A stretch of DNA of 63,596 bases, filler included, from Stramenopiles sp. TOSAG23-6 (taxonomy: Eukaryota): the NCBI GenBank assembly GCA_900128565.1. It is 14 parts of 14 records of this genome, joined end to end, with 100 filler letters (N's around TTAATTAATTAA, not from the genome) between each part and the next. Parts side by side here need not be neighbours in the genome. Positions count along the whole stretch, not along the records: positions 12,951 to 19,323 come from LT636710.1; 13 more parts are not named here. One strand, 5' to 3'. Shown in pieces: positions 5,155-60,203 of this stretch (positions are counted from its first letter, which is position 1; the number at the start of each line of letters is the position of its first letter). The translations under genes and the position numbers were made by a program. The notes beneath the pieces are model-generated. The model saw only the letters and a list, made by a program, of their open reading frames with translations, ran no database searches and was not told the DNA's origin.

Positions 5155-5522
5155 TATTTAAGCACGTTCCGCGCGATAGGGAATAGCTAATTGCTTATTA
5201 AAGCTACGCTTGATCCTCGTCACTGGTGGTCGTGTCCAAAAACCAGGTCCTGACTGGCTATTATTATTTTTCGGCCACGTGTATATATAGGCTAGGGTTA
5301 GGGCTTAAAAATTGAGGAGCAGGTCATCTCGATGTCATGTCAATCATCATTCACACACACACACATCATTTGATTGGACGAGATCCCGATCGAGATCATC
5401 ATTGCTCTCCTTTTGAAGTCGCCAGCAGACGACTTGAGAGAGAAGACGACAATCTATTTTGAATGAACTAGGGGCATACTTTGCTACAATATACAATTTG
5501 AGTTACTAGAAGACACAAACAT

Positions 5523-8457: not shown

Positions 8458-8771
8458 TTAGATTTTTTTTGTGTTTCAAACAGTTGTGTGCCATTACAAA
8501 CTTTTTATTTTTATCTATATTTATCTAAATAGATAAAAATATACAAGCAAAATTTCGCACAACACACAAAAGGCAACATTTATATTATATTTATCATACA
8601 ATAAAAAACTAAAAATGTTTAACAGCAACTCTTACCATTATTTTTACCATTTGTTGTTTGTTGTTGTTTCTATTTTTTTTTAAATATTTTCTTTTAATCA
8701 TTTTTTTTTTGCTTTTTATTTAAATTAGGGTTAGTTAGCTAAGGCTACTACAATTTGTACAAATTTCGTAC

Positions 8772-9829
8772 CTAACGCTTTCTAAAACGTTTATCCTTCC
8801 CTTTTAATGATATTGGAGATAAATGGCCCAATGTAATTTGGAAAAATATTTCAAAAAAAAATCTAAAAAATTTGTTAGGTACAAAATTTAGTACGAAAAA
8901 AAAATCGAATTTGAAAAAAAATAAAACATACAGGAATCAGACCGTTTCCGTCCATGTTGATCTATTTCGTGAACTTTTGGTTCATTCTGAGTCAAATGAC
9001 TGGTAATATATTCCAAAGCTTTATCGACCTCATCAGTGAAAAATAAATCTTTCACATCATCTTTTGTAATTGTGCCAAATTCCTCCATGACATCCCAATT
9101 AATGACTTGAGCCCAGTATTCTTCACCAAAAAGAACTACAGGAATATTTTGCATTTTACCTACCTGAACTAAACGGAGAATCTCAAAGAGTTCATCCATT
9201 GTCCCCATGCCACCAGGGGCAACTACAAGAGCTTTGCAAGGTACAGCCATCCAAAATTTTCTAGTAAAAAAATAATGAAATTCGAATGCAAGCTCAGGTG
9301 TGACATATGCATTCAAACCTGGTTCAAATGGCAATTCTATACCCATTCCAACTGATTTAGATCCTTGTACCTCACTTGCACCATGATTCGCAGCTTCCAT
9401 CATACCAGGACCACCTCCAGTGCAAATACTATACGTCGGAAGTTCGGGGTTCTTTTCTCGGCGATCCGTGGACCACTGCGCAAGACCTCGAGCCAATCCG
9501 CGTACTTTTTCATAATAGCCACACATCCAAAAAGTTCGTGTTAGCCTCAAGAGATCTGCTTGCGCTTTAGTGCGTTCCTCATCTGTTAAATCTGAGCGTG
9601 CTAATTTAGCAGTAATCTCATCCGTTGATTTCTTATGTGCTGGAAAACTTTTACCACGAGCAGAAGCAAAAAAGAGAACAGTATTACTTACACCATTCTT
9701 CTCCAAACGTCCTTTTGGTTCTTGGTATTCGCAAAGAACACGAATTGGACGAGCAGAACGACTACAAAGAAAATCTTTACTCTTGTAAGCCTTTTCCCCT
9801 CTTGGAGGAGATTTCGTTGTTGAATTCAT
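8772..9829 (-). CDS. LOG-family nucleotide phosphoribohydrolase (lysine-decarboxylase-like); one intron 8831-8931
   Basis: TGGGPGMMEAAN, FHYFFTRK and PGGMGTMDE motifs; removing the intron gives tail SLGHLSP...KR*. Confidence 0.9.
8831..8931 (-). mobile_element. Introner-like intron, GT...AT
   Basis: GTATGTTTT...GTACCTAAC...CCAAATTAC-AT; removal leaves an open frame to TAG. Confidence 0.75.
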
Positions 9830-10090: not shown

Positions 10091-11152
10091 ATGTCTGTGC
10101 AAAATCCCAAACGAACAGAATATGAAGAAGACGTGTTTCAAAAGGTGTTTAGCGGCTTAGGCCCTGTCGTATTGATTACAAGCTATTTAAGTTTGAAGGA
10201 TAGACTCTCTGGAAGACTTGTCTCAAATGACAAAAGTCGACCTTGGTTGGTCGGTGTTGATTGGGGTAAGGTGACTTGTACTAAAACAGCTAAGAATGGC
10301 GACTTGGAATTTTTGAAGTGGTTACGAAGTAGAAAACCACCTTGTCCATGGGATGAAGATACATGCATTGAAGCAGCTCAAAAAGGTCAGTTAAAAGTAT
10401 TACAATGGTTGCGAAGTCAAAATCCACCTTGTCCGTGGGATGAAGAAACATGTAATGAAGCGGCTAGAAATGGTCATTTAAAAGTACTAAAATGGTTGAG
10501 ACTTCAAAAACCACCTTGTCCATGGAGTGTAGCTACGTGTTATTTGGCCGCTATGAACGGTCAGTTAAAAGTATTACAATGGTTACGAAGTTTTAAAATT
10601 CCTTGTCCTTGGGATGCAGATGCTTGTAGCTTTGCAGCTATGAATGGTCAGTTAAAAGTATTACAATGGTTACGAAATCAAAATCCACCTTGTCCATGGG
10701 ATGAAGATACTTGTGATTTTGCCGAGAATAAGGATCACTTGGAAGTATTACAATGGTTAAGAAGCCAAAATCCACCTTGTCCTTGGAACGAAAATGTCAT
10801 GTGTTATCGTGCAGCTCAAAATGGTCATTTAGAAATATTGAAATGGTTAAGAAGTCAAAAACCACCTTGTCCATGGAGTGGAGTCACGTGTAGGTCCGCA
10901 GCAGATAATGGTCACTTAGAAATATTAAAATGGGTAAGAAGTCAAAATCCACCTTGCCCTTGGGGTGTAAATACATGCAAATGGGCAATTATTAGTGGTC
11001 ACTTTGAAATATTGAAATGGGTAAGAAGTCAAAATCCACCATGTCCTTGGAATGAAGAAATTTGGGAATATGCAATTGAATGGGAGAGTCGGCGACCAGA
11101 AATAAAAGAATGGTTAAAAGAGGTAAAAGCACCAGGATATGATCAACATTAA
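10091..11152 (+). CDS. Ankyrin-like repeat protein with CPW repeats
   Basis: About 9 repeats of C..AA.NG(H/Q)L(E/K)(V/I)L(Q/K)WLRSQNPPCPW. Confidence 0.9.
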   Translation: MSVQNPKRTEYEEDVFQKVFSGLGPVVLITSYLSLKDRLSGRLVSNDKSRPWLVGVDWGKVTCTKTAKNGDLEFLKWLRSRKPPCPWDEDTCIEAAQKGQLKVLQWLRSQNPPCPWDEETCNEAARNGHLKVLKWLRLQKPPCPWSVATCYLAAMNGQLKVLQWLRSFKIPCPWDADACSFAAMNGQLKVLQWLRNQNPPCPWDEDTCDFAENKDHLEVLQWLRSQNPPCPWNENVMCYRAAQNGHLEILKWLRSQKPPCPWSGVTCRSAADNGHLEILKWVRSQNPPCPWGVNTCKWAIISGHFEILKWVRSQNPPCPWNEEIWEYAIEWESRRPEIKEWLKEVKAPGYDQH

Positions 11153-12950: not shown

Positions 12951-13080
12951 ACTTGTACATCTTTATTCATACTCTCTGACTGTGGATATAATTCTGGTAC
13001 TTGTACATCTTTATGCATACTCTCTGACTGTGAATATAATTCTGGTACTTGTACATCTTTATGTGAACTCTGTGGATATA
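12951..13080. repeat. Coding tandem repeat, 48-bp unit
   Basis: LY(P/S)QSESM(H/N)KDVQVPE repeats running into the gap. Confidence 0.8.
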
Positions 13081-14560
13081 AACTCGACAATCCTTTAAAG
13101 TTTGGTGTATTTCCGTTTCCAAAACTTGTTCCAAAAGAATTTACATTTCCGTTTCCAAAAGAATTTCCATAATTGAAAAGATTCTGGTTGAGCGATTTGT
13201 TTTCAATCTTAGTCTTGAGTTTATTTTCTGTAGCTCTGAGACGCATCTTAGGCGCGACACCATCCTCAATGTTTTTACGATAAATATCCATTGGGGCAAC
13301 TTCTGTTGTATTCTTTATTACTTCTGGGTTTTTGAAACTTACAGCTGCTGGAATACCTAAAGCTTCTTTTGGAACTTTCCCTAGAGTTTGTGATTTTTTT
13401 GTATTGTTTATTACTTCTGGGTTTTTGAAACTTACAGCTGCTGGAATACCTAAAGCTTCGTTTGGGATTTTCCCTAGAGTTTGTGATTTTTTTGTATTCT
13501 TTATTACTTCTGGGGTTTTGAAACTTACAGCTGCTGGAATACCTAAAGCTTCTTTTGGAATAGTTGGGTTATTCTTGATGGTACTTTTATGTTTTCGTGT
13601 TTCAGTTGTTTCAGTAGTTTCTAAAAAGCCGGCAGCTATTGGTGTTTTAAATCTAGGCGATGTGTCATTATTTCCAAGAGTATTTCCAGTGTCTATTTTC
13701 ACTGACTGTACCGCTTTAGTAGAAGTGTTTGGATTGTTGGGATTACTAGGGCTAGTGTTTTGTGGATATGGTTGATATTCACCTAATCCAGTACCTGCAA
13801 CCTTTTGAGCAGAGGGTATGCCTGCACGAAGTAGTAGTGAATCTGAATCGTCCATACCCATTGACTGATATGGACGTTGTATTTTGCTTTCTTTATTCTT
13901 GTCTTGTTGCTGACCATTATTAGTGGAAATGTCTGCCAGAGATTTAGTTTTTATATTTTGATCTGGTAAGGATGACGTTTGAGTTTTGGATGTTTTACCT
14001 AACGTACCATATGTCATTTGCGAAATATGAAATAATGCTTTCTTTACGACTTCTTTTGCATGAATTCCTAGCCAATTCCAATCCTCAACCTTCGAGCCAT
14101 TATCAGTTATATTATTAGGGTTAATAGTAATAGCACTCTCCGGATTAATATTCGCAGCAATCTGTGTATTTTCCGTATCCATTGTGTTCATCGCCATCGC
14201 GTCCATCGGTTGTTTATTTTGATTTGGAGAACTTGGAGAACGAGATATATCTGGGTAACCTGTTCCTGCTGTTTGGGCTGTTTGTGGATTCGTCGCTACA
14301 GTTCCCATTGATCCATGTTCCACATTATTCATGGGCGTTGTTGGATACTCTATTGGTGGTGGTTGAAACACATATGGTACAGACGTAGCAGTATCTGGAT
14401 AACCAGTACCTGCTGGCCGTTGACTAACTTCCGTGGCATAGGGCGGAAAGGGCAAAGGTGAAATTGGTATACTTTTTTTATGTCTTCTTGCATAGACATT
14501 TTGTTGTAATGTTGTGAATAATAGAAATAATGTTGTGAGTATCTGCATTCTTTGCTTCAT
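12951..14560 (-). CDS. Secreted low-complexity repeat protein (3' truncated)
   Basis: Signal peptide; P/T/N-rich; 31-aa and 16-aa tandem repeats. Confidence 0.7.
13318..13559. repeat. Coding tandem repeat, 93-bp unit, about 2.6 copies
   Basis: PKEALGIPAAVSFK(T/N)PEVI.NT repeated three times. Confidence 0.85.
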
Positions 14561-14835
14561 GAATAGTTATCTAACTTCAATCGCAAATCGACTATAGATC
14601 TTATTCTCTCGATCCCCCAAGTAGTTCTCTTCTTCTTTCTTTTGTTTGTTTCGTTCCTGTGCGAAACATTCAAAAATCCTCTCAAGCAAAATCATGTTTG
14701 TTCCAATATTCGGCGCTTTTTGGAAATAGTAACTGCCGCGGAGACTTTCTCAAGAAAAGTCTTGTCCTGCTGGTACTGCTGAAAGATTTAACTGGAAGGA
14801 CAAAGTAATTACGTGCTTCATTGATAGAGGTAATA

Positions 14836-16481
14836 ATGAGTAAACGTGGGACAAATCAGACCGATGCTGTCACAGGAGATGGCCGAGACATAGAAAATGA
14901 TATCGCAAAATTACGGAAAGCGAATAAAGCACTGCGTCAACAAATGAAAGAATTGACAAACGCACTTCACGAATTAGCACTCAGTGACAAAGCTGCAAAC
15001 TCTAGTGAAATCCGTAAACTGGAACAAGCACACCGCAGTAAAGAAAAACAGATCCGTACATGTCTCAAAAAGATTAAAATTTACAAAATAGGCAACAAAA
15101 AGCTCAAGGCACAAGTGGATGCTTGCGTGGGTGATGACAAGTTGGTAGCAGTGGAAGTCCGGATTGCTGAAAAACAAGAAGAAATCAGAAAATTAAAACA
15201 GGAAAATAAATCTTTCATTTTCAAACAACGAGTGCTAGAAAAACGATTAGATGAATTAGAGTCAATGCAAGGTGATTGGCCTAATAAAATCAAAATGTTG
15301 ACAAAGGATATCGCCGTGTATGTTTTATTTTTTTTCAATTTCGAATTTATTTTTTTTCGTACGAAATTATGTACCTAACAAATTTTTTTTTGAAATATTT
15401 TTCCAAAATACATGTAAGTTTTTTTTCTCATTTTCCTCATTTTCCTCATTTTCACTATAACTTATTTTATTTTTTTGTACCAAATCCTAATTTTTGATAG
15501 TGTTATAAAAAACTGACGAATTCCAAAATATTTTTTTTTTTTTTACAATATATNTATAAAGAGCGTATAAAAAAATGTCGAGCACAGGAATTACGACAGG
15601 AACAAATGGCCGAGCGACAGCTCGTTCAGATGCAGGATTTATCAAAAAAAAACAGTGAACTTCGTGATGAACTTAAAAAACTTGGCTTTGAGGATGATTT
15701 GTATGTTTTTATGATGAACCCTAACCCTAATCAGAGTTATTTTTGTACCTAGTATTTGGTTTTGAGTACCGTTCATATGTATTGTTCATATTCATATTCA
15801 AATTTATTATTTGTTTTTGAGTTTGTACCGTTCATATGTATTGTTCATATTCAAATTTATTATTCAAGTTATTCAAATTTTTATTTAAATGTATTAAAAA
15901 AAATTAGAGCTAATTGCCAACAATTTTTTTTTAAATATTTCTCACAATACTTGGCGAAACGCAAACAGGAAAAAATAAATCGCGAATTGAAATGGAAAAA
16001 GGATAAAAGTCGTTTAGAAAAAGAATTGAGTGAAGTAACAGAGCGACAAAAAAGAGAACGATTGCAGAATACTAGTGAACTAAATGCAAAAATGGCTGAA
16101 ATGAGATCAGTTCAACGTAAAAAAAAGGAATTCGAAAACACACTAAAAGAAAAGGAAAAGGAAGTTCGTATGTACGGTTCCATTATGAATTTCTTTTCTT
16201 TTTCTTACTACGAAAATTCCGTACCTAATGATACTTTCTTTTTTTGAAATATTTCTTCACAGTGCAGGCAAGTTCTTCGATTAAAGCACTTGAAACGTCA
16301 ACTTCGACAACTTGCTCTAGTTCCATCACCAACAGCATCCAGACGCCCACCTCGCAATACTAGTAATTTTAAAAACAATCCTTTTGAAGAAGAGACTCCC
16401 AGCACGGAAGGCGTAAGTCCTACTCAAGACGTCCAACAAGACGAAGAAGAAGAACAAAATGGGGAAATGGATTATTTGTAA
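14836..16481 (+). CDS. Coiled-coil protein, multi-exon (introns 15318-15553, 15701-15952, 16172-16267)
   Basis: Removing these introns gives a continuous coiled-coil frame ...KDIAV|YKERIKK...EDDL|AKRKQE...EVRM|QVLRLKHLKRQLRQ. Confidence 0.75.
15318..15413 (+). mobile_element. Introner-like intron, GT...AT, directly abutting a second intron (15414-15553)
   Basis: Full consensus element followed immediately by GTAAGT. Confidence 0.8.
15701..15952 (+). other. Diverged family intron, GT...TT
   Basis: TT|GTATGTTTT...AAATATTTCTCACAATAC-TT; frame restored; contains an internal duplication and CCCTAA repeats. Confidence 0.75.
16172..16267 (+). mobile_element. Family intron with canonical GT...AG ends
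   Basis: AT|GTACGG...GTACCTAAT...GAAATATTTCTTCACAGTGC-AG; AG occupies the NN position. Confidence 0.8.
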
Positions 16482-16624
16482 AACAGTTTTCTAAATTGTC
16501 ACACTTTTATCACATGATGATATACTATACTGCTACAAATATAATAGAAGAAATAAGTATAGAAAAGTTTATAAATGCCCCTTCTTCTCAACTAATTATT
16601 TGTTATATAATCTATAGCTAACGC

Positions 16625-16933
16625 TCAGTACTTTCCTTTCAATTTAGAGGTCCCAAACCTAATTCTTCTTCTCAAACGACGGCCGACGTGACTACAAGGT
16701 CGACTACCATGATTTGGACGTTTTGCTGCACGTGAATTACGTCCAGTCAATTCAAAAATATAATCTGATAAAGTCTGAATGGTCGCCTGATCTAGAACGA
16801 CAACGTTCTGCTGCTTTTCTTCACGCACGCAGTGCATTGTGCGTGCAGATGCTTCCAACTGAAGTGGTGACAAAGCTGAACGCGGGATCATCCTTCGTGC
16901 CACAAAAGCTGCTCTCATAATACTACTGTTCAT
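16625..16933 (-). CDS. Small basic protein, probably mitochondrion-targeted
   Basis: Transit-peptide-like N-terminus (MRAAFVARRMIPRSALS); Arg-rich C-terminus GRNSRAAKRPNHGSRPCSHVGRRLRRR. Confidence 0.6.
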   Translation of the reverse strand: MNSSIMRAAFVARRMIPRSALSPLQLEASARTMHCVREEKQQNVVVLDQATIQTLSDYIFELTGRNSRAAKRPNHGSRPCSHVGRRLRRRIRFGTSKLKGKY

Positions 16934-17369
16934 TGTAGTGAATGTACTACTATGTAATAAATGACTCAAATGGTGAAGACAAGGACGTAGTGAAGAATGC
17001 ACCAACGAAAGGACTTCTTTGAGTAATATTGCTGCTATGGTGTTTTGTGTGTGTGTTGGAGTAACACGTGCCGTCTGTAGGATTTTTTACAAGATTTCGT
17101 GTTTTCGCAAACGCGGATACCTGGTACCCATTGAAATGCCATTGAAATCATTGAAATGCAGCAAAAGTTTCAAAACTACTTAGTACATTTGAAGATAACA
17201 TTTTTCTTGTGAAATAAACAATTTGATACAGCTCAATTTTATGTTTATCTAAATGTTTATTTATGTTTTATCAGTCTAGTTCAAAAAAAACTTACAAAAA
17301 ACATATAAAAAATACAATGCCTTAACCTTACGAACACATTCGAATAACCCTAACCCTAAACCATAAACC

Positions 17370-18510
17370 CTACACATTCGAATAACCGACAGTGCGATTG
17401 TTAATCAACTTTTGAATATATCGAACTTGGAGATACGTAACAAGTATTACAGTGAAGCTTTCAGCATGTATTGTATAACAATATAAATTACAATTTGAAA
17501 CTTGTGAGTGTTTGTGATGCAAAACAAAGTAAATATGAAATTCATGATGAAAGCAAACATTCAAAAAAAAAAATCATTAGGTACAAAATTTCGTACGAAA
17601 AAAAAATAGGTAAAACGTACAATCGTCCACCAAAAAACATCACGATTATTTTGTTCTTGCACATCTGAGTGATTATCGACTCGCATTCCCATATATTTTG
17701 TAGAGGTATATAGAGTATCTATTTGCCAATTTAATCTGCGTAATACTTCCTTTGTAGGTTCTAAATGTTTTTTTTGCAAGTATTGTACAATAATATTTCA
17801 AAAATTCGATTTTGTTTGTTAGGTACAAAAGTTACTATGAAAAAATTTAGACAAAAAATTGAAATGATAAAAAAATTTTAAAAATCTAAAAAAAAATCTT
17901 AGGTACAAAATTTCGTACGAAAAAAAACCATAAATTCGAAATTGAAATTATTAATAAAAACGTACAAGGTATCTTCTAATGAAGTCGTTGGGTCAATATC
18001 AACCGCAAAAGTCACCCGCTTTAAGGCTCGTGAACCAAAACGGTTCTCAAAACAAAACCTATATACGCCAGCTTGTTTTGCAACAATAGAAAATTTATCC
18101 TCGGAAATGTATAGTTTTGATTCATACATAATATTCTCTTTGGTCGTATCTCCTGGGCCATATGCTTTAATCTTTAAATCTCGATTCCCACCAGCAGTGA
18201 CAAAAAATGCTCCATGAATATCCATTGATTCGAGCGGTTCAGCTTGATATAAAACACCATTAAACAACTGAACATCTTCACTAATACATACATCCTCGCC
18301 ATACGGAATATCAAAAGTTAGAATATGAGACGGAGAAAACCTGGGCTCATGAATATTTCCTGATAACTTTGTTAGGCCATTTATGTCAACTGGGACATGC
18401 TCACCTTGAGGAACTTCTACAAGAGCCGTAGAAGCAGCACTTGCCCCATATAAACGACAACTTAAGCTAAATAGGAACAATACTACTGCGATATTCAATT
18501 GATAGAACAT
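17370..18510 (-). CDS. p24/emp24/TMED family cargo receptor; introns 17778-17965 and 17466-17620
   Basis: Signal peptide, GOLD domain (GVYRFCFEN), coiled coil, NNRDVFWWTI|AESF TM segment, YLQVRYI. Confidence 0.9.
17466..17620 (-). mobile_element. Family intron, GT...AT
   Basis: ATT|GTACG...CAATAC-AT|GCTGAA yields the p24-typical WWTIAE. Confidence 0.85.
17778..17965 (-). mobile_element. Composite family intron, GT...TT
   Basis: Two internal TTTTGTACCTAA motifs; TT duplicated at both junctions; joins EDTL|QKKHLEP. Confidence 0.8.
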
Positions 18511-18760
18511 TTTGTAATCGTTCGATAATTATATATTCTGTATTGCGCCACGGTACGTAATTGAAACTTTTAAAGAAGGCAGGAAGTACAGGGATGATTG
18601 GCACGAGGGTCAAAACAGGACAGAAAAAACACGAAAAACGGTCGTTTCTGTTGTGTCAAAAAATAAACCTGTGAGTGTGACAACCACAAGTAAACCGTAG
18701 TTCAAAGTGCCAAACTTTTCAACAATATTGAATACTCTTTGGGATTGTTTTCATATCAAC

Positions 18761-19236
18761 ATGAAAAATTCCAATCCAAAGTCATCCGATATATCATCAG
18801 AGAAATATAGTATTGCTAATCAAGTAGAACGTTATCAACATCAAAAAAAAACGAATTGTCAGCAGACTTTGAATATTGAAAAACTTTACGACCCATGTAA
18901 CTTTAAAAATAAAAGAGTTCTAATTACAGGAGCTAATCGAGGACTTGGACTTGCACTCACAAAAGCTGTAATAAAAGCCGGTGCTATTGCAGTTGCTGTG
19001 ACTCGTACAAAATCCAGTTCCGCCTTTGACGGCATGAAAGTGGAACAAATTATTTCTGGAATAGATGTTACATTAGATGAAAATGTCTCGATACTAACGA
19101 AGAAGTTAAAAGTTCCTGTTGATATTGTCATTAACAATGCCGGATATTTTTATGGTCCTGTAGAACGTATTACTGAAAACACTCTCAATTTCGAAGAAAT
19201 AAAAAAAATGATTGATATTTGTGCGATTGGACCTTT
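18761..19236 (+). CDS. Short-chain dehydrogenase/reductase, first exon (truncated)
   Basis: VLITGANRGLG and DIVINNAG motifs; family intron starts at 19237. Confidence 0.88.
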
Positions 19237-20139
19237 GTATGTTTTATTTTTTTTTCAAATTCGTTTGTTTTTTCGTACGAAATTTTGTACCTAACAAATT
19301 TTAGTTTTTTTTTTTGAAATATTNNNNNNNNNNNNNNNNNNNNNNNNNNNNNNNNNNNNNNNNNNNNTTAATTAATTAANNNNNNNNNNNNNNNNNNNNN
19401 NNNNNNNNNNNNNNNNNNNNNNNTATTTTCTATCAAACTTTTGTCTTCATACGAAATTTTGTACCTAACAAAAAAATCTTTTTTTTTTTGTTTCATCATG
19501 AATTTCGAATTTATTTATTTTCTGTAACAAATTTTGTATCTAACTAATTTTCAATTTGAGTTTTTTTTTCGCAATACATTCTCCAATAGAATTATGCGAT
19601 ACAAATGTTATAACGGAAAAAGAGGAGCAGTATCAGCTAGTGCACATTTAAAACAAAGATGTGCATCTTTTCGTAATCCGTCAACTGCAAGGCGAAATAT
19701 ATCCCTTGATTTTCCACCAACAAAAGCGAAAAACGAACACGAAAAAGCGGATGAATCAAAAGTCAATACTTTGAAAAAGAATAACCAGAATAACTTGCGA
19801 AGGTCAAGTTTTGCTGTTTAAGTTAGTAGTACGATTTGATGGAGGGTTTCAAAGTGTTTTTGTATTTGAAACTTTTTTTGTAAATTTAAAAGTTTTACCA
19901 AAAAGAATTTATATAAAGTCAGAAAATATTTTTGATTATTATTCATTTTTAATTTAAGAAATTGAAAAATCATAATATCTCACACACGGAAGCACTACAA
20001 AGACTCCAAAAGGCAGTAGCGCTTGAATTCTATATAGAGAATTAACTAGTACAACATTCTAGTTTTTTCTTCGTATATAATCGTATATAATTTATGTACA
20101 TAGGTCAACAGAGTTTTGTACAAAATGTTACTCATTTTT

Positions 20140-21063
20140 TTAAGCAGCATTTGGATATCTAAAGCTTATGTACGCTTTTTTGAACTCATCAAAACCAACC
20201 AACACAAGAGCTCCAGCCATACCGCGGAAGATATTGGCTCCAGCACCTTTAAACATAGCACCAACTCCTTCTTCTTTCAAAATCAAACCAGCACATTGCA
20301 GAGAACTGGTATATTTCATTGCATTAGCACCACCAGAGTTCATCATCATGCGACGACGAATGGTATCGATTGGGTATGCCGCAGTCGATGCAGCAGCAGT
20401 GACGCTGTAACCGAGGAGAAAACGAAGCCAAAATGAATCTGGAATCATGTTGCGACAAGTATCGTAGATACCAAAGTAAAGACCACGATAAGCAATAATC
20501 CCAACACAAGAGACCCAAAAACCGTTGTATACACCTCCTTTACAAAAGACACCTGATTTCTTAGCAGTCTTTGTGATTGTATCAATAAGACCATTGAATT
20601 CACGATCAGCACCTGTACCAACATCAACAGCAAGGCGAGTACGAGCGAAATCAAGTGGATAGACAACCGCGAGGGAAGTGGCACCTGCGGCACCACCAGC
20701 CATTACGTTGTTTAGTAGCTTTATTCCGAACGAAGAATTCTTGTCAGCTCCGAGAAGTTGTTTGAAACCCTTCTTGTAGCGCTCCTTGAACATAAAGTTT
20801 AATGCCTGAGTTGGGAAATAACGCACAACATTGGCAAGGTTACCACGCCAGAAAGAAGCAAAACCTTGCTCTTTTGGGACACGCACAAAGACATCGACGA
20901 TACCTTTGTATGGCCTGGTGATAGCCGCGGACTCTCCTTGATTTTGGAGGAGGAGCTTCACACGCTCGATTGGTGCAGCAGACGTCTTTGCTACAGCTGC
21001 GGCGCAACCAGCAAGCATAAAGTCTTCAATGGCATTTAGTTTGACTTGTTTTTGAGGAGCCAT
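20140..21063 (-). CDS. AAC: Mitochondrial ADP/ATP carrier
   Basis: APIERVKLLLQ, WRGNLANVVRYFPTQALNF, YPLDFARTRLA and the RRRMMM signature; ATG at 21063. Confidence 0.97.
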   Translation of the reverse strand: MAPQKQVKLNAIEDFMLAGCAAAVAKTSAAPIERVKLLLQNQGESAAITRPYKGIVDVFVRVPKEQGFASFWRGNLANVVRYFPTQALNFMFKERYKKGFKQLLGADKNSSFGIKLLNNVMAGGAAGATSLAVVYPLDFARTRLAVDVGTGADREFNGLIDTITKTAKKSGVFCKGGVYNGFWVSCVGIIAYRGLYFGIYDTCRNMIPDSFWLRFLLGYSVTAAASTAAYPIDTIRRRMMMNSGGANAMKYTSSLQCAGLILKEEGVGAMFKGAGANIFRGMAGALVLVGFDEFKKAYISFRYPNAA

Positions 21064-21400
21064 CGTGTGGTGATTGTACTGTGCTCGGTGTGTGTGAGTG
21101 AGTAAGTGAGTGAGTGAGTGGAGGAAAACACCACGAGTTACTTCGAAGAAGCCAGCAGCGATTTCGCTTTGACTGGCACGTGGCACACTGAAAGCAATTT
21201 TCTTCAAACCGTAATTAGGTACACAAATTTCGTACCAGAATATTAGGTATAAAATTTTGTACGAGAAATTTGAATTTCAATTTTTCAGTTTTGAGCTCGA
21301 GTTAGTTTTTGATGGCTTTTTAATAATGATTTCGCGATGATTTGACAAAATTTTTCCAATGATTTAAAAATTTTAGAATAATTCTCTTTAGCCTACTTCA

Positions 21401-23221
21401 ATGAGTTCTAGTAATGAGGAATCTGAAACATCCGCATCAGATGTATCAGCATCTGAAGCAACTATTGCATTGAAGAACTTATTAGGAATTGGTGCTGCAT
21501 CAAAAGGAAACTCAAAAGGCAAATCGGATGAACCACAGAAGAGACAACTGCAAGGTAAAAACGACCTTCATGAAGCTGCAGCAACGCTGAAGAACATTAT
21601 TGGAATTAAAGCCGTTGATGACCCTGAAATAATCGTACCGTGTGGGAAATCAAATAAAATTCCTTCTGTCGAGAAACAAATGCATGAATCTCGAACTTCG
21701 ATGTCTAACCCTCAAGAATGTGCAAAAATAGAATCTCAATTAAAGAGTGCACGACAAGAAGCTGACTTTTGGGTATCAGAAACCCTTCGTGCATCCCAAG
21801 AGGCAAACAGACTTCGATCACAATTAAAACAATTGCCCCCAAATTCCGTAGATACAAAAGAAAATACTTTTACAATTGTACAAAACAAAAAAGTTACTGT
21901 CCAAAAAGAGCCTTCTGTTCAAAAGCAAAAGATGAACAGTTCTTCTGATCAAAAGCAAAAGATGAACAGTTCTGCTTCACAAACATTGGAAACAAAGAAA
22001 TCTAAAATTCTCCCGAAAACTAAAAATAATAAACAAAATGGCAAAGCATTGAATAGTAAAAGTAATCGGAATATCGTAAAGAAAGGGTCAAATAAAAAAC
22101 AGAGGAAAACAAAACGGAAACTAAATCGAAAAAAAAAACTCAAAAATCTACAGTCTGAAACATTTGATACAGAGAACAAAAACGTATTCTATCATTTGAA
22201 TACTTTTAAAAATTGCAAATGTATTGTAGTATTTTTAGCAATAATCTTCGGCAATATTATATTTTTTATTAACTATGACTTTGGAATGGAATTAAAGTTA
22301 GGGTTAGGGTTTGGAATGGAATTAAAGTTGGATTCTACTCTTGTTAAGACGTTTAAGATACCGACAGAATCAAATGGCATTTTCTTTGAATATTCATCTG
22401 ATTTCGATACGTCAGGTGTAATGTGGTATTTAGGTACTCTAGCTGGGAAACGATCTTGGTACAATCCTGCTGATCCTGAAGATCCTGATCGTTCTGTTCT
22501 CATTCGACGCTCATCTGATCGATATGGTCACTCGCATACAGCTGCTTCGCGAGATGGCAATAACGTTGCTTACACTGACTCAAGTGTACACTCTGGAGCC
22601 TGGGTATCATTTGATTTTGGTAGAGGAAGGCGTCTTTTGCCATCACAATACACACTTCGGTGCCTCAGCTCACGCACTAGTCGACAGGGAGGTGAATTAA
22701 GAAGGTGGTTATTGGAGGGATCAAATGATAATGTACATTGGACACTTCTTCGTCGCCATGGGCCGCCCGAAATTCTCAGTTCTAGTTCACTTTCTCAGTT
22801 ACCTCTCTACTTAGGAGAAGTCATTGAACATATTTTCAATATTTTTCGAAGTTTCATTATAAAATTATCAGATGTAGTATCTAACACAAATAGTGGAGAA
22901 TTGTCTTTGAGACGATGTTGCTCGTGGCTTTTTGGTGATGAATCAATAGTTGGTGCTGAAAGTTCTTCTTGGGCGATCCCTCTCGTTCAAATCAGAGTCA
23001 ATAGTTTCAATTCAGGTGAATATATTAGAAGTAATCAGGATTTAGGATTTAAAGTATTTCGATATTTTCGCATCCGCCAAAGTGGTAAGAATCATAAAGG
23101 CCTTGAAGAGACATCAACAGCAACTCTTTCGTCATTAGAAAGGCGATCTATGCTCTTTCTCAATGGTTTTGAAATTTATGGATACTTAGTTGAAGATTCT
23201 GATGCAGAAACATANCGTTAA
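21401..23221 (+). CDS. Membrane-anchored protein with C-terminal discoidin/F5-8-like beta-sandwich domain
   Basis: TM segment near aa 275-292; FEYSSDFDTSGVMWYLGT, W.LEGSND...WTLL, FRYFRIRQSG, L.GFEIYG motifs. Confidence 0.7.
   Translation: MSSSNEESETSASDVSASEATIALKNLLGIGAASKGNSKGKSDEPQKRQLQGKNDLHEAAATLKNIIGIKAVDDPEIIVPCGKSNKIPSVEKQMHESRTSMSNPQECAKIESQLKSARQEADFWVSETLRASQEANRLRSQLKQLPPNSVDTKENTFTIVQNKKVTVQKEPSVQKQKMNSSSDQKQKMNSSASQTLETKKSKILPKTKNNKQNGKALNSKSNRNIVKKGSNKKQRKTKRKLNRKKKLKNLQSETFDTENKNVFYHLNTFKNCKCIVVFLAIIFGNIIFFINYDFGMELKLGLGFGMELKLDSTLVKTFKIPTESNGIFFEYSSDFDTSGVMWYLGTLAGKRSWYNPADPEDPDRSVLIRRSSDRYGHSHTAASRDGNNVAYTDSSVHSGAWVSFDFGRGRRLLPSQYTLRCLSSRTSRQGGELRRWLLEGSNDNVHWTLLRRHGPPEILSSSSLSQLPLYLGEVIEHIFNIFRSFIIKLSDVVSNTNSGELSLRRCCSWLFGDESIVGAESSSWAIPLVQIRVNSFNSGEYIRSNQDLGFKVFRYFRIRQSGKNHKGLEETSTATLSSLERRSMLFLNGFEIYGYLVEDSDAETXR
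22280..22329. repeat. 20-bp direct repeat flanking a telomeric-type insert
   Basis: TTTGGAATGGAATTAAAGTT-AGGGTTAGGG-TTTGGAATGGAATTAAAGTT. Confidence 0.9.
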
Positions 23222-23260
23222 ATTAGTTAAAGTAACAAGATTTATATTTTTTTTTAAAGC

Positions 23261-24460
23261 TTATAAGAATAAATTTGCATAAAATCTCATGCCACTTGCT
23301 GAATCATCGCGGCAAAGTGCTCCTTTCAATTCGGCAGTTTTTAAATGTTCACTAGCCACAAGTAAAGATACATTCCATTCTTGAGAGAGTAACATTGCAG
23401 ACAAACCTGTTCCATACGTTTTTTTTCCATTCTCGAGCTTCATTGCTTCTGCTTCTTTCTCATCAACTAGACGTTTTAATTTTTCAGTTACTGCATCATC
23501 ACTAAATGTGTCCAGTTGGACAACAATAACGCCAGACGGAAATTTTCGTAAACGCATTCCAAGTTTTAGAATTGAAAGTTGTCTGCACGCCACAAGAAGA
23601 TCATCCGGTGATAAGAGTTCAGTTCCTCGTGCACGATTGTACATGCAGTATATATCCATAAGGGATAACATCCCACCAGCAGAATCTATTGGTTTTACTA
23701 TAAATCCTGAAAGTTGTCTCGCTAATTCCGAATAAAATAGATCTCCTCCAGTACCCATTGAATCACGTGTGACTGGGCTCGCAATTCCAACAGACCTCAC
23801 TAAAGAACTAAATTCCGCTTGTTCCTCGGCAGAAACATCATCACTATTTTCACGACTTGAAAGTTGTGCAACACGTTCAGCAACTTGAACTACTTCCCGT
23901 GCTTTCGCCATGAGTGAATCTAAATCCTGAAAAGCTGAGCCAGCTAGTCGTTTTCCCTTTTGCTCCTCCTGTTTTTGTTTGAATTGTAAACCACCGATAC
24001 CTGCAAATGCTGCACGCTGAGCGCCTGAAGTTCCTGAAAATGTTTTTGGTCCTTCGCGTGCTTTGCGCTCCGATTCTTCCCATGACTTCCTAGAGAGTGC
24101 TAAGGGAAGTTGCTTCTTCCAATCAGTGAATACTGACGATGAGTCATCACAAAGTTTTATCTTGAGCACAGCACCAGTTCGGGTCATAATTATTAATTTG
24201 TAACTTGCATCAAACCAACCTGTCGATTCCGATGACGTTGACGAGATATTAGCAAGTCGAAGTTCCTTTGGATTTTCCCTCGTCTTATCAACCCACACTA
24301 ATCTGAAGTTTGTGAGATATAGGAAACCAGATTGGTAGTCCTTTTGTTTATTATTATCTACATATAGCGTTGTGTTTTTCGTCTGTCTTAAAACCACCTC
24401 ATCTACGCTCATAGTGGGTATTCCCGTTTGAGCTAATTTACATGGCTTCCAATTATCCAT
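23261..24460 (-). CDS. VPS36: ESCRT-II subunit Vps36/EAP45
   Basis: GLUE domain (GFLYLTNFRLVW), AFQDLDSLMAKAREVV, YNRARGTELLSPDDL, G.LCRDDS..G.RFY.N. Confidence 0.95.
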   Translation of the reverse strand: MDNWKPCKLAQTGIPTMSVDEVVLRQTKNTTLYVDNNKQKDYQSGFLYLTNFRLVWVDKTRENPKELRLANISSTSSESTGWFDASYKLIIMTRTGAVLKIKLCDDSSSVFTDWKKQLPLALSRKSWEESERKAREGPKTFSGTSGAQRAAFAGIGGLQFKQKQEEQKGKRLAGSAFQDLDSLMAKAREVVQVAERVAQLSSRENSDDVSAEEQAEFSSLVRSVGIASPVTRDSMGTGGDLFYSELARQLSGFIVKPIDSAGGMLSLMDIYCMYNRARGTELLSPDDLLVACRQLSILKLGMRLRKFPSGVIVVQLDTFSDDAVTEKLKRLVDEKEAEAMKLENGKKTYGTGLSAMLLSQEWNVSLLVASEHLKTAELKGALCRDDSASGMRFYANLFL

Positions 24461-24675
24461 CGTGTATTCAATCTCAAATCACATTCACTAAATAAGATTA
24501 TCAAACAAATAATGTTTTTTTTTGACTCGTAAACTTTGCGAAAAAAAATTTGCCAAAAAGAAAAACAGGTTTGTCACAGCGCCAGCTCAAGTCAAACTGA
24601 CTGGACTGGCGTCAACAAAACCACCCACTTACTTCTGCGCATCGGCTGCAGCATTTTATTACAGATTTTATTAAG

Positions 24676-25038
24676 ATGAACACTCTTGTCAGATCAACCG
24701 CAAGATTTGCTCCAAAGATAGGTAGACGTAATCAGTCTACTCAGGGCACATTGTTCCAGAGATTCGTACCAGTTGAAGTATATCCTATTATTGGATGCAT
24801 TGGCTTTGCTGTTGGTCTTTGTACTTGGTTTAATCTCCGTGTACTTTTTACACACCCAGATATGAAGTTAACTAAGACCACTCGTGCCCAAATGGTGAAG
24901 CAGGGACACATGGTGGACGAAGGTAAAAAGTACACTAAACATCGTAATGGCTGGAATGCTGGAGGATGTGGCTTTAAGAGCACAACCTTTCCGAAAGAGG
25001 GCAGTGAGACAGGAAAGAACGTCACCCTTTTCGCATAA
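24676..25038 (+). CDS. NDUFA4/B12D-like small mitochondrial membrane protein
   Basis: PVEVYPIIGCIGFAVGLC...R.LF.HPD motif after a transit-like N-terminus. Confidence 0.75.
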   Translation: MNTLVRSTARFAPKIGRRNQSTQGTLFQRFVPVEVYPIIGCIGFAVGLCTWFNLRVLFTHPDMKLTKTTRAQMVKQGHMVDEGKKYTKHRNGWNAGGCGFKSTTFPKEGSETGKNVTLFA

Positions 25039-28469: not shown

Positions 28470-31400
28470 TTATAGTGAAGCTGATCGTTGGAGACAAGAC
28501 ACTCTTCGATGACGAAACATTGCATGACGTCCAACATCATCAAGTGTTTGAAGTCTGTAATCATTCTTTACTAAAGTTGTTAATTCTCTCCTAACGTTTT
28601 CGTAAAACCTTTTAAATGAGAAAATACCTAACTGCCCTCGTAAAAATTCCACCAGGTACAAACCTGTTCGTAATTGAAATACACGTACTGTACAAACAGA
28701 TACTCCTGCTCTTGTTACATTGAGGGAATATTTATCCCAATCAGATATTACCTTTTGACGGATGTGTTTATAGGGGTATGTAATGCAAAAAAATATTTCA
28801 AAAAAAAATTAAAAATTTTGTTAGGTACAAAATTTTTTTACNAAAAAAAAAAAAAAAAAATTTAAAAAACAAAAAAAAATTAAAAAAAAAAAAATTAAAA
28901 AATAACGTACAAGGCAATGGATGCGAGTCAGCTTCAACAATGTTTGCAATTCTTCGTAATACAGCAGCAGCTGGAAACGTTGTAGTAAACCGAGTAGATC
29001 TTTTCACAGTATCAACAAATAAAGGGACATTCTTCAGGTCATTTTTTATATTTTTTATATTTTTTGTGTTTTTTGTATTTTGTATATGTTTCGTGTTTTT
29101 GAGTGTCTTTTTTTCATGTATATTTTTTTCATTTTCCACATACTTATCATTATTATTACTAGACAATTTCATATCAGAATGTGTAGCAATTGTATCATTA
29201 CATTGTAAATTAGAAAAATTGTCTTTAGTAGATTTTATTTTTGTTGGACTATTAGGGTTAGGGTTCCAGCGATGATGAAGTTGCATTGGTAACAAACTCC
29301 TAGGTGATGGAGACCAATTTTTTGCTGAATCACGAAATCTTCGACTTTCAACATCAGTCATTGGATAGCATATACTGTAAAAAGATATAACATAGAGTAT
29401 TTATTTTTGTTACAAAATTATTATTCCAAAACATTTAGTTACAAAACAAAAAAACAAAGAAATTTCAAAAAAAAAAAAAATTAGGGTTAGGGTTATTCAA
29501 AAAAATAAAACCTACATAAATCTTCAAATATTTCATCATCAAAAGAATCTGATGTAATAAATGAATGTGGAGATAAAGTATGATCTGAAAATCGACGTCT
29601 TGGGTGTAAATTTGATGTTTTACTTGACTTGTTTGATTGAGCACCGACTATATCGAGTGGAAGTGATCTCGCACATTGCGATACATTTTGATAATTTGCA
29701 TTTTGTAAAGATTGACAAGTGGTAGGACTAGGGTTAGGGCTTTCATTGTACAAGTCATTATACAAATCCATTTGAAAAGATTCATCATTTTCACGTTCTA
29801 TCCTATTTTGAAGTAGCTGTGGCGCTAAAGGAGGCGACGAAAAAAATGGTGTATTTCGTGTTTGTCTTGACTTTGTAGAATTGAAATTTGTTTTTTCTGT
29901 ATTTTCTGTATTTTCTGTATTTTCTGTATTAGGGTTGTTGTCAAATGTATGTGAATTTCCAATTTGTTCATTTTTTCTAGAATTTGCATGTTTTGTTAAA
30001 TATTCCCCTGGTGTAGTAGATGTAAGAGAATTAGTAAACATTGTATTATTGTCTTCAGTACATTTTCTAAGAGAACGAAATGGCCTATGAGTCCAAGTGT
30101 TACCCGGTGACAGTTCTTGTTTGAATTCACCTATGTCATCAAGGTCATGTAAAGACTCAAAATCAATCCAAAGTGGTTTTTGTTTTTGTTGTTGTTTTTG
30201 TTGCTGTGAATCAACAACATCTATCACTTCAATTATTTCATCTGTTGTATTATTTCTTGAGTTATGTTTTAAATTATGTTTTGAATTATGTTTTAAATTA
30301 TGTTTTGAATTATTTTTTGAATTATTTTGTGTTAGCCATGGATGACGTAATGCTGATCGTACGGAAATCCTATAGACAGGATCTGGTTCCAATAATTTTG
30401 TTAATAAATCTATCGCCTTGATGGAGAAATTTTTAGGAAAAAACCAATTTGGATACAATGTATCACTTTTTTGCTTCATAGGAAAAAGCAATGCTTCAAT
30501 ACATTGGTTATCATTGATAGTATCATACTCATTTCCAATAGCTTCTTCATTAGTGTTAGAATTGTACGAAAAAAGTTGTTTATTATTGAGTTTTTGTACT
30601 TGATTTTGTTCTAGTGCTGTACATTTATGTCGTTTTTGACACTGAATTTGATATTTATGTAAAATTTCACGACGATGTTGTGTCCATTCACGCCATTTTG
30701 CAAATCGTGGACATTGGAGCAAATCTTTTCCAAAGGGTAAGTTTCCTGCAAGCATTGCATATAAGATGATTCCTGACGACCAAACGTCAACAAAGACTCC
30801 ATCATAGCCTCTATTTGGAGTATGTTCCTCAGAATTGATTCTACGATTACATGAATGCTCAGATGTTGATGATAACGATGAAAGGACTTCAGGTGCTACA
30901 TAATGTGGAGAACCAACAACACTTTTTAGACGTCTTATATCTACTGTATTATTGTTTGCCGGACCTGCACTAAATTTCATTTTTTTTATTGAGAATATAT
31001 CAGATTCATTTTGAGAATCTCCGAAATAAGCAGAAAGTCCAAAATCAGCAATTTTTAAAGTCGGATACATATCATCATGATCGGAAAGTAACAAATTTTC
31101 AGGTTTTAAATCCCGATGGCAAACACCTCTTTCATGACAAAATAAAATACCTTGTAGTAATTGTTGGTAATATCTACGAGCGATGTTTTCTTCCGTTCCT
31201 CGATCAATCAAAATTCGATCAAACAATTCACCACCAGACGCCAACTCAAGCACTAAAAAAATTGTACTTTTTGACACATTAACTAATTCAAGAACTTCAA
31301 TCAATCGTAAAACATTTTTATGTCCGCTTAAATAAGCCATATGTTGTATTTCTTGCAAAATGTTTCTTCTATCTTTAATAAAAGCTGCATATTTAGACGA

Positions 31401-53409: not shown

Positions 53410-54477
53410 ATGTCTTTCCCTTGGAATGAAAATTCAGCACCAGCTCCTGTTCGAGGTGCGCGACGTGGTCGAGGAACAAATGAAGCTCCGACTTCACTAT
53501 GGGGTCCACCTCCTGCTCAGTCAGAAAATAAATCGAGGGGTAATCCTTCACAGAGGACTCCACCACCGTGGGGTTTAGACCAAACAAAGTCTCCAACTTT
53601 GACACAAGCACAAGTGCTTCATCAAAGACAACATAACCAACACGCAAAACTTACCAATGAACCTAAAAGTTTTGCACGTGAAGAGTTTGTCGCACAGACT
53701 TCAAATGTACCTCTTCCAAAAAAGTTTGAAATACCTGAAACTTTTCCCGAAGAAGAGCAGCGTTTGGTCGCGGATATGATGAATAATGGATATGAAGAGG
53801 CACAGATTATCGAAGCTATTATGGATCTGCGAGAATCGTTAAAGGCTCAACTGCGAAATTGGCAGGCGAACGAAAACGAACGCGGGAGAAACAAATTACG
53901 CGAGGGATCTCAAGAAATGTTCGCAAACTCTTCGCAGAATCAGGGCCAGATGAACGTCTCCCCTCCAGAATTAACACATCAAAGTGTGAATTCCGGTAAA
54001 CAATCTCGGAGTGATATATCGGCTCCTTGGGATAGAGAGGAAAAGATTCGTCCTGGAATTCGCAGAGTGTCTCGAAACAGGAGAGAAACTGCTCCATTTG
54101 CAGTTGATGAAGAAAACCTCAAGACGAATGGCACACAACACGTCAATCGTGGAAATACCAACGGCATAATGCAAAATCAAAAACGAGATCGTCGGACACT
54201 AAAAATGCAGCGAGATGATAAAGTTAAAGCACGCGAGGAAGGGAGTAAGATGTACGTTTTCATAATTAATTTCAATTTTTCTTTCATACGAAATTTTGTA
54301 CCCAATTATTTTTTTTTTGAAATGTACGTTTTCATTTAAATGTCCAAACTTTAAAACAATATTTTTCTAAAATTCAGATGTGCTGGAGGTGTCGTCTGGC
54401 AGTCAGCTGCACGGGATTCAAATGATGCAGCGCGGGCAACAAGAGAGAGAAATATGGGAACAACCTCGCTTTGGTAA
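53410..54477 (+). CDS. Hypothetical protein; GT-AG family intron 54252-54377
   Basis: Spliced frame ends ...GSKI-CAGGVVW...MGTTSLW*. Confidence 0.6.
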
Positions 54478-56993: not shown

Positions 56994-58055
56994 ATGAGCA
57001 AACTACTTTCAAGCAAAATGATTACGCTTCCTCCGACAAAAAATGATACTAAAAGTTACGCATTACACCTTAACAACGTAAATGTTTTTGATGCTATCAT
57101 AAGAGTTTTATCCAGTGTCGATGTAAGTTCTGATGCCAATCTCTTTGCTGTTCCACTGCTATACCATGCAGTTGCTGCCGATGAAATTGATGGCGTTCGA
57201 ATGCTTTTAAATCGGTGTAAATTTGACATTAACAGGAAGGTTGAAATTAAGAACCTAGTTCAAGGTTACACTGCACTTCACTTGGCAGTTGATCAAGTAC
57301 ATCCCGAAATTGTGTCAGTCTTGCTTTCCCACGGCGCCACAGTCGAAACTAAAACGAATAGTGGTCACCTCCCTCTCAACATTGTAAATATCCCTTATTA
57401 CCCAATGTTGTTTTCTACTTTTCAAATATTATGTCACCTTTTTCTCATTCTTATTACAATTTGTCACTTTAAAAATTTACATGCAGCAATTCGAGGAAAT
57501 GTTTCAATCGTCGAAATGCTTTGTAGATTTGGTGCCAAAGTAAATGCAAAAGGATCACATGGAAATTCCCCTTTGATTGATGCAGCAGAAGCTGGTAACA
57601 TTAAAAGTGTTGAGTATCTAATCAAAAATGGTGCGAATATTCATGCGCAAAACGACTCCGGAAGCACAGCCTTAATCCGTGCAGCGTTCTGTGGTTACTT
57701 CAAAATTGTTTATTTTTTATTACTTAACGGAGCAATTGTAGATCACCAAGATAATATTGGTAATACTGCTCTGATGAAAGCTGTCATCAAAGCTCAAAAC
57801 GTTGAGGTCATTAAAATACTTTATAAATTTGGTGCGTGTAAACATATCACGAATAAATATGGCAACAGTGCTTTGAAAATAGCATTAGAAGACCAAAACC
57901 AGTTCATCGTAAGAGTTTTATCTGAAAGTTGTATGATTTATTTTTTTTTTTACAGAAAAATCGAATTTATTTTTTTCGTACGAAATGTTGTACCTAACAA
58001 TTTTTTTTTTTTTTGAAATATTTTCCTAAAATATAGACGTGATATTGTTGAATCA
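56994..58055 (+). CDS. Ankyrin-repeat protein (3' truncated); introns 57384-57482 and 57931-58036
   Basis: GYTALHLA, GHLPLNI|AAIRGN, GNSPLIDAA, GSTALIRAA, GNTALMKA. Confidence 0.9.
57384..57482 (+). other. In-frame 99-bp intron GT...AT lacking the internal family motif
   Basis: The 33 inserted codons split an ankyrin repeat; removal gives GHLPLNIAAIRGN. Confidence 0.85.
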
Positions 58056-59264: not shown

Positions 59265-60203
59265 AAATACTTAGAGCCAACTCGCGTTTTGATTCATATA
59301 CTGTATCTTTCGCTAGCCTTTTTTGAAATACCGTTTTGGATGAGGGAAAAATCTTCTGATGAATTGACGCAGTCACTTGAAAAATATAATTACTATACAC
59401 ATGGTCGAGAATATTGGTCTATGACGACTGTGAAATCCTTAGAATTTTGTTTATTACTTTTAGAAGCGTTTGGACTAGTATACTTTGGCTCGATAATTAA
59501 AAGTGAGGTAGTGTCAGAACATGCAACTAACGTGCAGAGCGCTGCTAGTAAAAATATGTCAGGTCAAGAGTCTATGTTCGTTTTCATCATTCATTTTATT
59601 TTTTTTCATAGTAAATGTTGTACCTAACGATTTTTTTTTACGAAAACGAAAAAAAATACATTTTTCACGATACATGAGCGGATTGGTACGGTTATGGCGA
59701 TTTTCACATTGGATATTTTTCGATGCAAGTGTTTTACTTATAGCTTTTATAGATTTATTTCTGTATTCCATTGATTTTTCTTCAGGATTTCTTGGTTCTC
59801 TAATTAGACCCATAATTTGGATTTTATTTATTCATGTATATTTTCATCATGAATTTTTTACCTACATTTTTTTTTTCATAGAAAATTTTGTACCTAACAT
59901 TTTTTTCTCTTTTTTAAAAATAATTTTATTTATTCATCCTGTACGACGAACAATGGGTTTTATAATTAGACTTTTTCGGAGAATTGCTGATGTCCTTTTA
60001 TTACTTTTTGCAGTAGTCGCAATGTTTGCTTGCTTCAGTTATTTCTTATTTAAACCCAAAAATGGAATTATCAATGATACAAACGAAGGCTTTGGTTTCT
60101 CATCATTTTGGGAATCATACAAAACTTTATTCAAGTGTGTAACACTTGTAAATTTTCCTGATTTTATGAATTCTGGATACGCAGAGTTCTCGTGGTTCCC
60201 TTT
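59265..60203 (+). CDS. Ion-transport domain protein (two-pore-channel-like) fragment; introns 59576-59675 and 59836-59937
   Basis: L.LAFFE.P.W; IRP helix; FSSFWESYKTLFKCVTLVNFPDFM pore motif. Confidence 0.75.

Follow-up and report, generated by a model that had tools for sequence, protein, structure and literature searches.

We asked in which register a family of repeated inserts is removed from the genes of a protist: as GT...NN, with the upstream copy of a 2-bp duplication left in the exon, or two nucleotides further upstream as NN...AC, with that copy inside the intron. The window, by which we mean the whole stretch of DNA analyzed (63,596 nt), is AT-rich eukaryotic DNA. Its eRF3 gene (3310-5157) was 86% identical to EukProt entry GSMAST32, the best match besides one 100% identical record, and the matches below this were all at or below 64% identity, one flagged contaminant apart. 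We take the label GSMAST32 to mean MAST-3; MAST-3 is an uncultured marine stramenopile group. Judged by this similarity, the host would best be read as a MAST-3-like stramenopile. RNA matching positions 15001-24900 was found in 14 runs, all of them seawater metatranscriptomes and available as assembled contigs. We compared four of these runs (X1, X2, X3 and X5, from three studies, X2 and X5 belonging to the same one) with positions 12951-19323.

One gene in which the two registers can be told apart encodes a p24/EMP24 protein and is interrupted twice:

17966..18510, minus strand: p24 exon 1 (Pfam PF01105, E 1.4e-12; RNA contigs over 18017-18540)
17778..17965, minus strand: p24 intron 1, GT...TT, 188 nt, TT/TT duplication; its removal restores the frame
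17621..17777, minus strand: p24 exon 2 (PF01105, E 1.5e-08; RNA contig with 2 synonymous differences)
17466..17620, minus strand: p24 intron 2, GT...AT, 155 nt, phase 0; RNA contig join
17615..17620, minus strand: 5' splice site GTACGT of intron 2, from the sequence and the family donor counts
17576..17598, minus strand: family core; its branch-point motif (TACCTAA), that of the family, lies 111 nt before the 3' end of intron 2
17504..17510, minus strand: candidate replacement branch point CACTCAC, whose putative branch A would lie 39 nt before the 3' end; the motif pattern was picked after the site was seen
17466..17470, minus strand: 3' end TACAT of intron 2, the family consensus end
17370..17465, minus strand: p24 exon 3, encoding the transmembrane segment and the tail up to the stop (p24 homologue alignment; RNA contig over 17354-17464)

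Removal of both inserts (17620-17466 and 17965-17778) gives a 265-aa protein. The exon upstream of intron 2 ends in ATT and the insert, a lengthened copy of the family, reads GTACGT...AATACAT; cutting it as GT...AT yields WWTIAE, whereas the 2-nt upstream shift, TT...AC, yields WWTNAE. Record 18 of run X3, a 272-nt contig of depth 2, consists of 17354-17464 directly abutting 17620-17780, and differs from the gene at two positions, both synonymous. It joins 17464 to 17620 and fits the intron 17466..17620 with an ambiguity of 1 nt on each side. Among eleven shifts, only GT..AT, TA..TG and TG..CA fit this contig, and TT..AC mismatches it. The join comes from one contig of depth 2 in one run, and an intron-less allele would look identical. 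A p24 cDNA carrying the downstream dinucleotide (AAT) had been named as evidence against the GT-first register; the contig carries the upstream one and reads WWTIAE. For intron 1, no bridging RNA contig was present among the matches listed for the four runs. We also considered six in-frame GT/GC-AG cuts near intron 2, each of which adds or drops residues of the conserved region and none of which yields the RNA join.

The original prediction held that protein conservation fixes the register, at p24 and at a second locus, an ankyrin gene:

57384..57482, plus strand: candidate intron GT...AT in the ankyrin gene, diverged, 99 nt, in frame and stop-free

The predicted translations were reproduced in both cases (WWTIAE versus WWTNAE in p24, PLNIAA versus PLNNAA at 57384-57482), but the scores did not bear the argument out. 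A word-based search with p24 exon 1 found no homologue; an exhaustive HMMER search returned 31. Against the profile of these 31, the Ile form scored 206.7 bits and the Asn form 204.3, a preference of I over N of 2.4 bits, and the junction column held V in 12 rows, I in 3, F in 2, five other residues once each and N in 0 of 22 residues, 9 of the 31 rows being gaps. Downstream shifts of 2-3 nt, which give WWTIVE, scored highest (208.7 bits), 2 bits above the GT..AT form, and were rejected by RNA only. The ankyrin profile, built from 101 repeats in the best 120 of 207 matches, gave 11.8 bits for I and 11.6 for N (0.2 apart), 17.5 for a 6-nt shift and 9.5 for the intron-retained form; the column itself held I in 7 and N in 4 of the 101 repeats. 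Among the best 120 of the 207 matches there was no close orthologue and no same-species cDNA protein, and six in-frame GT/GC-AG alternatives lie near this intron. Conservation in p24 thus disfavors NN...AC, with its Asn, without singling out one register, and the ankyrin gene is uninformative.

Three further junctions are covered by RNA, all of them in a coiled-coil gene next to p24:

15318..15553, plus strand: tandem double intron (15318-15413 and 15414-15553), removed whole as GT...AT; GT upstream, AT downstream
15701..15952, plus strand: GT...TT intron, 252 nt, equally readable as TT...AC; RNA joint
16172..16267, plus strand: family copy ending in AG; RNA joint

Contigs of X3 and X5 join 15318 to 15555 (base 15554 is N in the window) with the upstream GT kept, and the 2-nt upstream shift mismatches them. 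X2 and X5 join 16171 to 16268, that is, GT...AG with the upstream AT kept. The same two runs join 15698 to 15951 across the intron 15701..15952, where the register is not discriminated. The 2-nt shift therefore mismatches RNA at all three discriminating junctions (p24, 15318 and 16172), and the GT...NN register that had been predicted is right; at p24 itself it is backed by the RNA of one contig. Taken together, the four joins leave just GT..NN and the 1-nt downstream shift TA..NG, the latter because G is the first base of each of the four downstream exons; GT is favored by the donor consensus and by the copy at 16172..16267, a plain GT..AG intron. In all, RNA supports the precise removal from mRNA of 4 of the 27 catalogued introns, with contigs from 2 studies.

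Such joins could in principle come from alleles or strains whose DNA has no inserts, the inserts themselves being unspliced or poorly spliced. We regard this as highly improbable, although the RNA was taken from mixed seawater communities and the p24 contig differs from the window at 2 sites. Record 14 of X2 retains 15388-15553, a portion of one insert, but neither of the two inserts that follow, and record 6 of X1 retains 16172-16266, an insert that is absent in X2 and X5. The presence of both unspliced and spliced contigs argues for splicing in the coiled-coil gene, rather than for presence/absence alleles there. In addition, the p24, DPAGT1 and PGP-like hydrolase genes are frameshifted unless their inserts are removed.

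RNA contigs were also found to pile up on the element at 15294-15506, 17424-18062 and 19128-19323, where their depths add up to thousands in X1 and X2 and to 10-74 in X3 and X5, the exon depths being similar. Such a sum over contigs is no measure of expression. Many of these contigs have loose ends showing copies at other loci, and the pile-up in X1 and X2 may reflect retention or differences in assembly.

The family counts out of 26 given below derive from complete copies curated by hand. This set excludes copies cut by assembly gaps, copies with no clear end, the odd copy near 52325 in the DPAGT1 gene, the later member of the tandem pair, and what look like GT-AG introns at three places (near 29.5, 47.0 and 62.2 kb). 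At unrelated genic sites, 24 of the 26 copies share an identity of 0.68-0.92 with a homopolymer-collapsed consensus. The yeast-like GTAYGT donor of the original prediction is kept, with GT in 25 of 26 copies (40574 being the one exception), the full GTAYGT in 19, and G at +5 and T at +6 in 23 each. The base at intron position -3 is C in 25 of 26. Four copies that bear on the register or on the 3' end are these:

8831..8931, minus strand: family copy in a LOG-family gene, CT/AT
28778..28910, minus strand: family copy, TT/AT
54252..54377, plus strand: family copy ending in AG, AT/AG
57931..58036, plus strand: family copy ending in AG, TT/AG

A shift of 2 nt alters the mRNA in 9 of the 26 copies and is synonymous at 8831 and 28778, so that RNA alone could test those two. 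The other 17 copies are indistinguishable by mRNA sequence, which leaves some room for the NN...AC register, possibly with a U12-type spliceosome, as does the GT-less copy at 40574-40475, which reads AT...AC when shifted. We nevertheless consider NN...AC extremely improbable, given the mismatches at each discriminating junction and the absence of Asn from the p24 column, and a U12-type machinery fits poorly with a donor that has no ATCC motif and a branch distance of 35-48 nt. A search of the window with Rfam found no snRNA; its only match was a tRNA gene (37704-37776, minus strand).

With the GT-first register, the intron ends are AT in 18 copies, TT in 3, AG in 3, CT in 1 and GT in 1; 23 of 26 end in T, the remaining three in AG, and AC is absent. 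In terms of triplets, the 3' end is CAT in 18 and CTT, CCT or CGT in 5. The last exon base upstream is T in all 26 copies, preceded by A in 14, and T occupies -1 on both sides of the insert in 23. At -2 the two sides match in 19 of 26 copies against 12.3 expected (permutation p=1.4e-4), and no covariation was found at -3 or -4 among the 26 copies, which defines a 2-bp N-T duplication. The exon base at -3 is C in 13 of 26 (p=1e-4) and that at +1 is G in 14 of 26 (p=4e-5), giving a CAT↓G target. Thus the duplication proposed from the sequence exceeds chance, and the three AG copies end exactly in the family's terminal position (16267, 54377 and 58036), 16267 being the acceptor used in RNA. The 3' dinucleotide had also been called free; the strong excess of AT does not support this for the ends in use, which are N-T, mostly AT, and sometimes AG. 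All targets sampled end in T.

Fourteen copies have A upstream at -2, and all 14 have A in the intron as well. In the other 12, the intron repeats the upstream base in 5 and carries A in 7, never a third base, so that in all seven mismatched copies it is the intron that carries A. In p24, the exon base, in the Ile codon, is family-like; the intron side therefore probably carries the derived A. These counts suggest that A is favored at -2, but an insertion that leaves the element's own A would explain them too. In the latter account, introns are still GT-first, an element TG...CA enters N↓T with the mismatch resolved either way, the AT excess is a product of insertion and the 3' dinucleotide may be freely tolerated. 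We hold this account to be possible, if rather unlikely. It agrees with three near-consensus copies (8931, 15318 and 46109; identity 0.83-0.86) that are already NT/AT, with the lack of an age trend (the divergence of NT/AT copies did not significantly exceed that of NT/NT copies, p=0.36) and with targets that all end in T, from which other termini were never sampled. Conversely, a true duplication is needed for the five copies in which both sides share a base other than A (three TT/TT, one CT/CT and one GT/GT), and three copies have reached AG at the exact terminal position. Among JGI metagenome contigs, we found no exact match to the element core and no p24 relative that could offer an empty orthologous site.

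In 25 of the 27 introns, a motif resembling a branch point is found 35-48 nt from the 3' end. Of these introns, 21 have the family motif there, and four that are long or diverged (p24 intron 2, 15414-15553, 15701-15952 and the ankyrin intron) have another motif at 35-39 nt; such replacement motifs, matched by a relaxed pattern that was fixed after the sequences had been viewed, are suggestive only. The GT donor consensus, the branch-point motif and the pyrimidine tract are those of U2-type introns, the use of the branch A being presumed. The first YAG after the branch point, conversely, does not serve as the acceptor: AG ends 3 of 26 copies, and in 16172-16267 a CAG 5 nt upstream of the end (16260-16262) is skipped in the RNA. 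Use of this CAG would frameshift the gene, and decay of frameshifted RNA could hide the use of skipped AG sites. A nearer CAG precedes the end of 46109-46284 in the same arrangement.

The inserts have short inverted repeats at their ends (TGTA...TACA), which raises the alternative that paired ends guide a non-spliceosomal removal, as proposed for the nonconventional introns of euglenids. The predicted pairing of the ends reaches 0.97 for 46109 and about 0.6 for several copies. However, it is at most 0.2 in 12 of the 26 copies, two of the rows having ends misplaced by a few bases, and for the p24 intron confirmed by RNA it is 0.01; the donor, the branch motif, the U-rich tract and the copies ending in AG all match spliceosomal signals. 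Structure-guided removal is, in our view, highly improbable.

We therefore think it probable that the inserts are a MITE-like family of Introners with a 2-bp NT duplication, removed by a U2-type spliceosome whose 3' rule is relaxed. The introns would be copies of one small non-autonomous DNA transposon with ends GTA...TAC, which would insert at a CAT↓G-like site and duplicate 2 bp, always N-T and mostly AT. The perfect part of the terminal inverted repeat is just 3-4 nt (GTA...TAC, TGTA...TACA) with an imperfect extension, against the 6 nt or more looked for in an Introner. The element would bring along both the GTAYGT donor and the TACCTAAC branch point, and the downstream copy of the duplication would become the last two bases of the intron, so that GT...NT splicing would restore the original coding sequence. 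The U2-type spliceosome would recognize the (T)ACNT signature 35-48 nt past the branch point as the 3' end, instead of the first YAG, with A favored at -2. We infer the mode of transposition, the spliceosomal chemistry, the use of the branch point and the selection at -2. More tentatively, the major spliceosome may work here without scanning for YAG, with a ruler of ~35-48 nt from the branch point to TAC-N-U and the last-base U opposite a normal G1, which would let one transposon family make clean introns at almost any N-T site; we see this as possible, though less likely than not.

Several copies depart from the family pattern. At 15318-15553 (plus strand), a full family copy ending in ACAT is followed directly by GTAAGT...AT; both are missing from the mRNA, one contig retains the second intron in full together with the last part of the first, and these back-to-back introns could be a case of recursive or twin-intron splicing. 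In a Myb gene (40574-40475, minus strand), a family copy has the donor TTATGT instead of GTATGT and reads TT...AT, or AT...AC when shifted; its retention ends the Myb protein early and its removal restores about 135 more codons, which makes it the best place in the window to seek a relaxed donor. The copy in the DPAGT1 gene (52327-52213, minus strand) has lost its first G (CTACGT), and the usual ends give a frameshift. Starting the intron at the second GT (52321) and ending it at an AT situated 4 nt earlier (52219) leaves the gene in frame with two additional residues, and a CT...AC reading is therefore unneeded; an assembly error is possible as well. In an ion-channel gene, a 102-nt copy (59836-59937, plus strand) is flanked by a 15-nt direct repeat and is in frame and stop-free, so that its register cannot be read from mRNA. 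Three introns that look like GT-AG and contain hardly any of the family core, or none, lie at about 29515-29376 (minus strand), 47008-47232 (plus strand) and 62260-62062 (minus strand), with coordinates set by eye.

Fragments of the element core also occur outside recognized introns, at 21215-21275 (minus strand), preceding an ORF recognized by eye as mitochondrial-carrier-like, and at 8745-8775, just after the LOG gene. Short telomere-type runs of TTAGGG/CCCTAA (e.g., 45496-45530, 46380-46400, 46885-46915 and 61720-61780) are scattered through genes, introns and intergenic DNA, some of them inside open reading frames. An intronless ORF at 10091-11152 (plus strand) is made of repeats of about 26 residues of the type WLRSQNPPCPW, which presumably resembles the repeat proteins of giant viruses and algae.

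The 3' AG is among the most conserved signals of eukaryotic gene expression, and a lineage in which most introns have a normal donor and branch point with N-T ends isolates the 3'-site rule. With the RNA joins, the register of these introns in the window passes from inference to observation. The system makes it testable how the second splicing step proceeds with no terminal AG, and whether a relaxed rule opens genes to a mass gain of introns from transposons. For this organism, gene predictors that insist on GT-AG will produce wrong gene models.

Among known systems, U12-type introns have AT-AC ends and an RTATCCT donor. The present introns share with them their non-AG 3' ends, and shifted copies look like AT...AC; they differ in that the RNA rejects the shift, the ATCC donor motif is missing and the distance from branch to end is long. 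Introners of Micromonas, Aureococcus and Chrysochromulina are reportedly the subject of Huff et al. in 2016. In the available parts of two accounts, Introners of these and other organisms are multi-copy and short, with a target-site duplication and inverted ends that contain the 5' splice site, the 3' site being drawn from the duplication (PMC9860276, PMC11282704). According to the same parts, known Introners need an AG target because the co-opted 3' site is AG, and the duplication elsewhere thus supplies AG, whereas here it is N-T and is used unchanged (PMC9860276, PMC11282704). The marine protist Amoebophrya, as far as the accessible sections go, has invasive introns that recur in many places, carry both direct and inverted repeats and have ends other than GT-AG; its direct repeats are of 3-5 nt, its intron borders are variable and its U1 snRNA is apparently absent (PMC7789003, PMC11282704), in contrast to the fixed U1/U6-type donor and 2-nt duplication here.

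The closest precedent is that of the Fritillaria tunicates. In the portion of the source available, the introns of Fritillaria borealis and F. pellucida are transposon-derived, are removed by the U2 spliceosome and mostly end in AT or AC, with AT the commonest 3' end (34% and 44% of introns), and U2AF is duplicated, with divergent paralogues (PMC13326754). The same portion describes YAY before the donor and at the 3' end, which CAT↓GT...CAT↓ here may partly resemble, but the main classes of F. borealis start with AG (AG/AC and AG/AT) and are highly diverse, whereas a GTAYGT donor and one dominant family are seen here, and the 3' AC common in Fritillaria was found at 0 of 26 ends (PMC13326754). 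Fritillaria is moreover an animal, and the present host a stramenopile-like protist. If the ruler-type splicing considered above is real, it would be independent of the tunicate solution and simpler, with an unaltered donor. We found no description of such introns in MAST-3 or any stramenopile in a search that covered few subscription papers, and the supplementary species table of PMC9860276 may list the lineage. Introners and splicing at a 3' AT are thus already known elsewhere; what would be new here is an Introner family, in a stramenopile-like protist, whose splicing does without AG.
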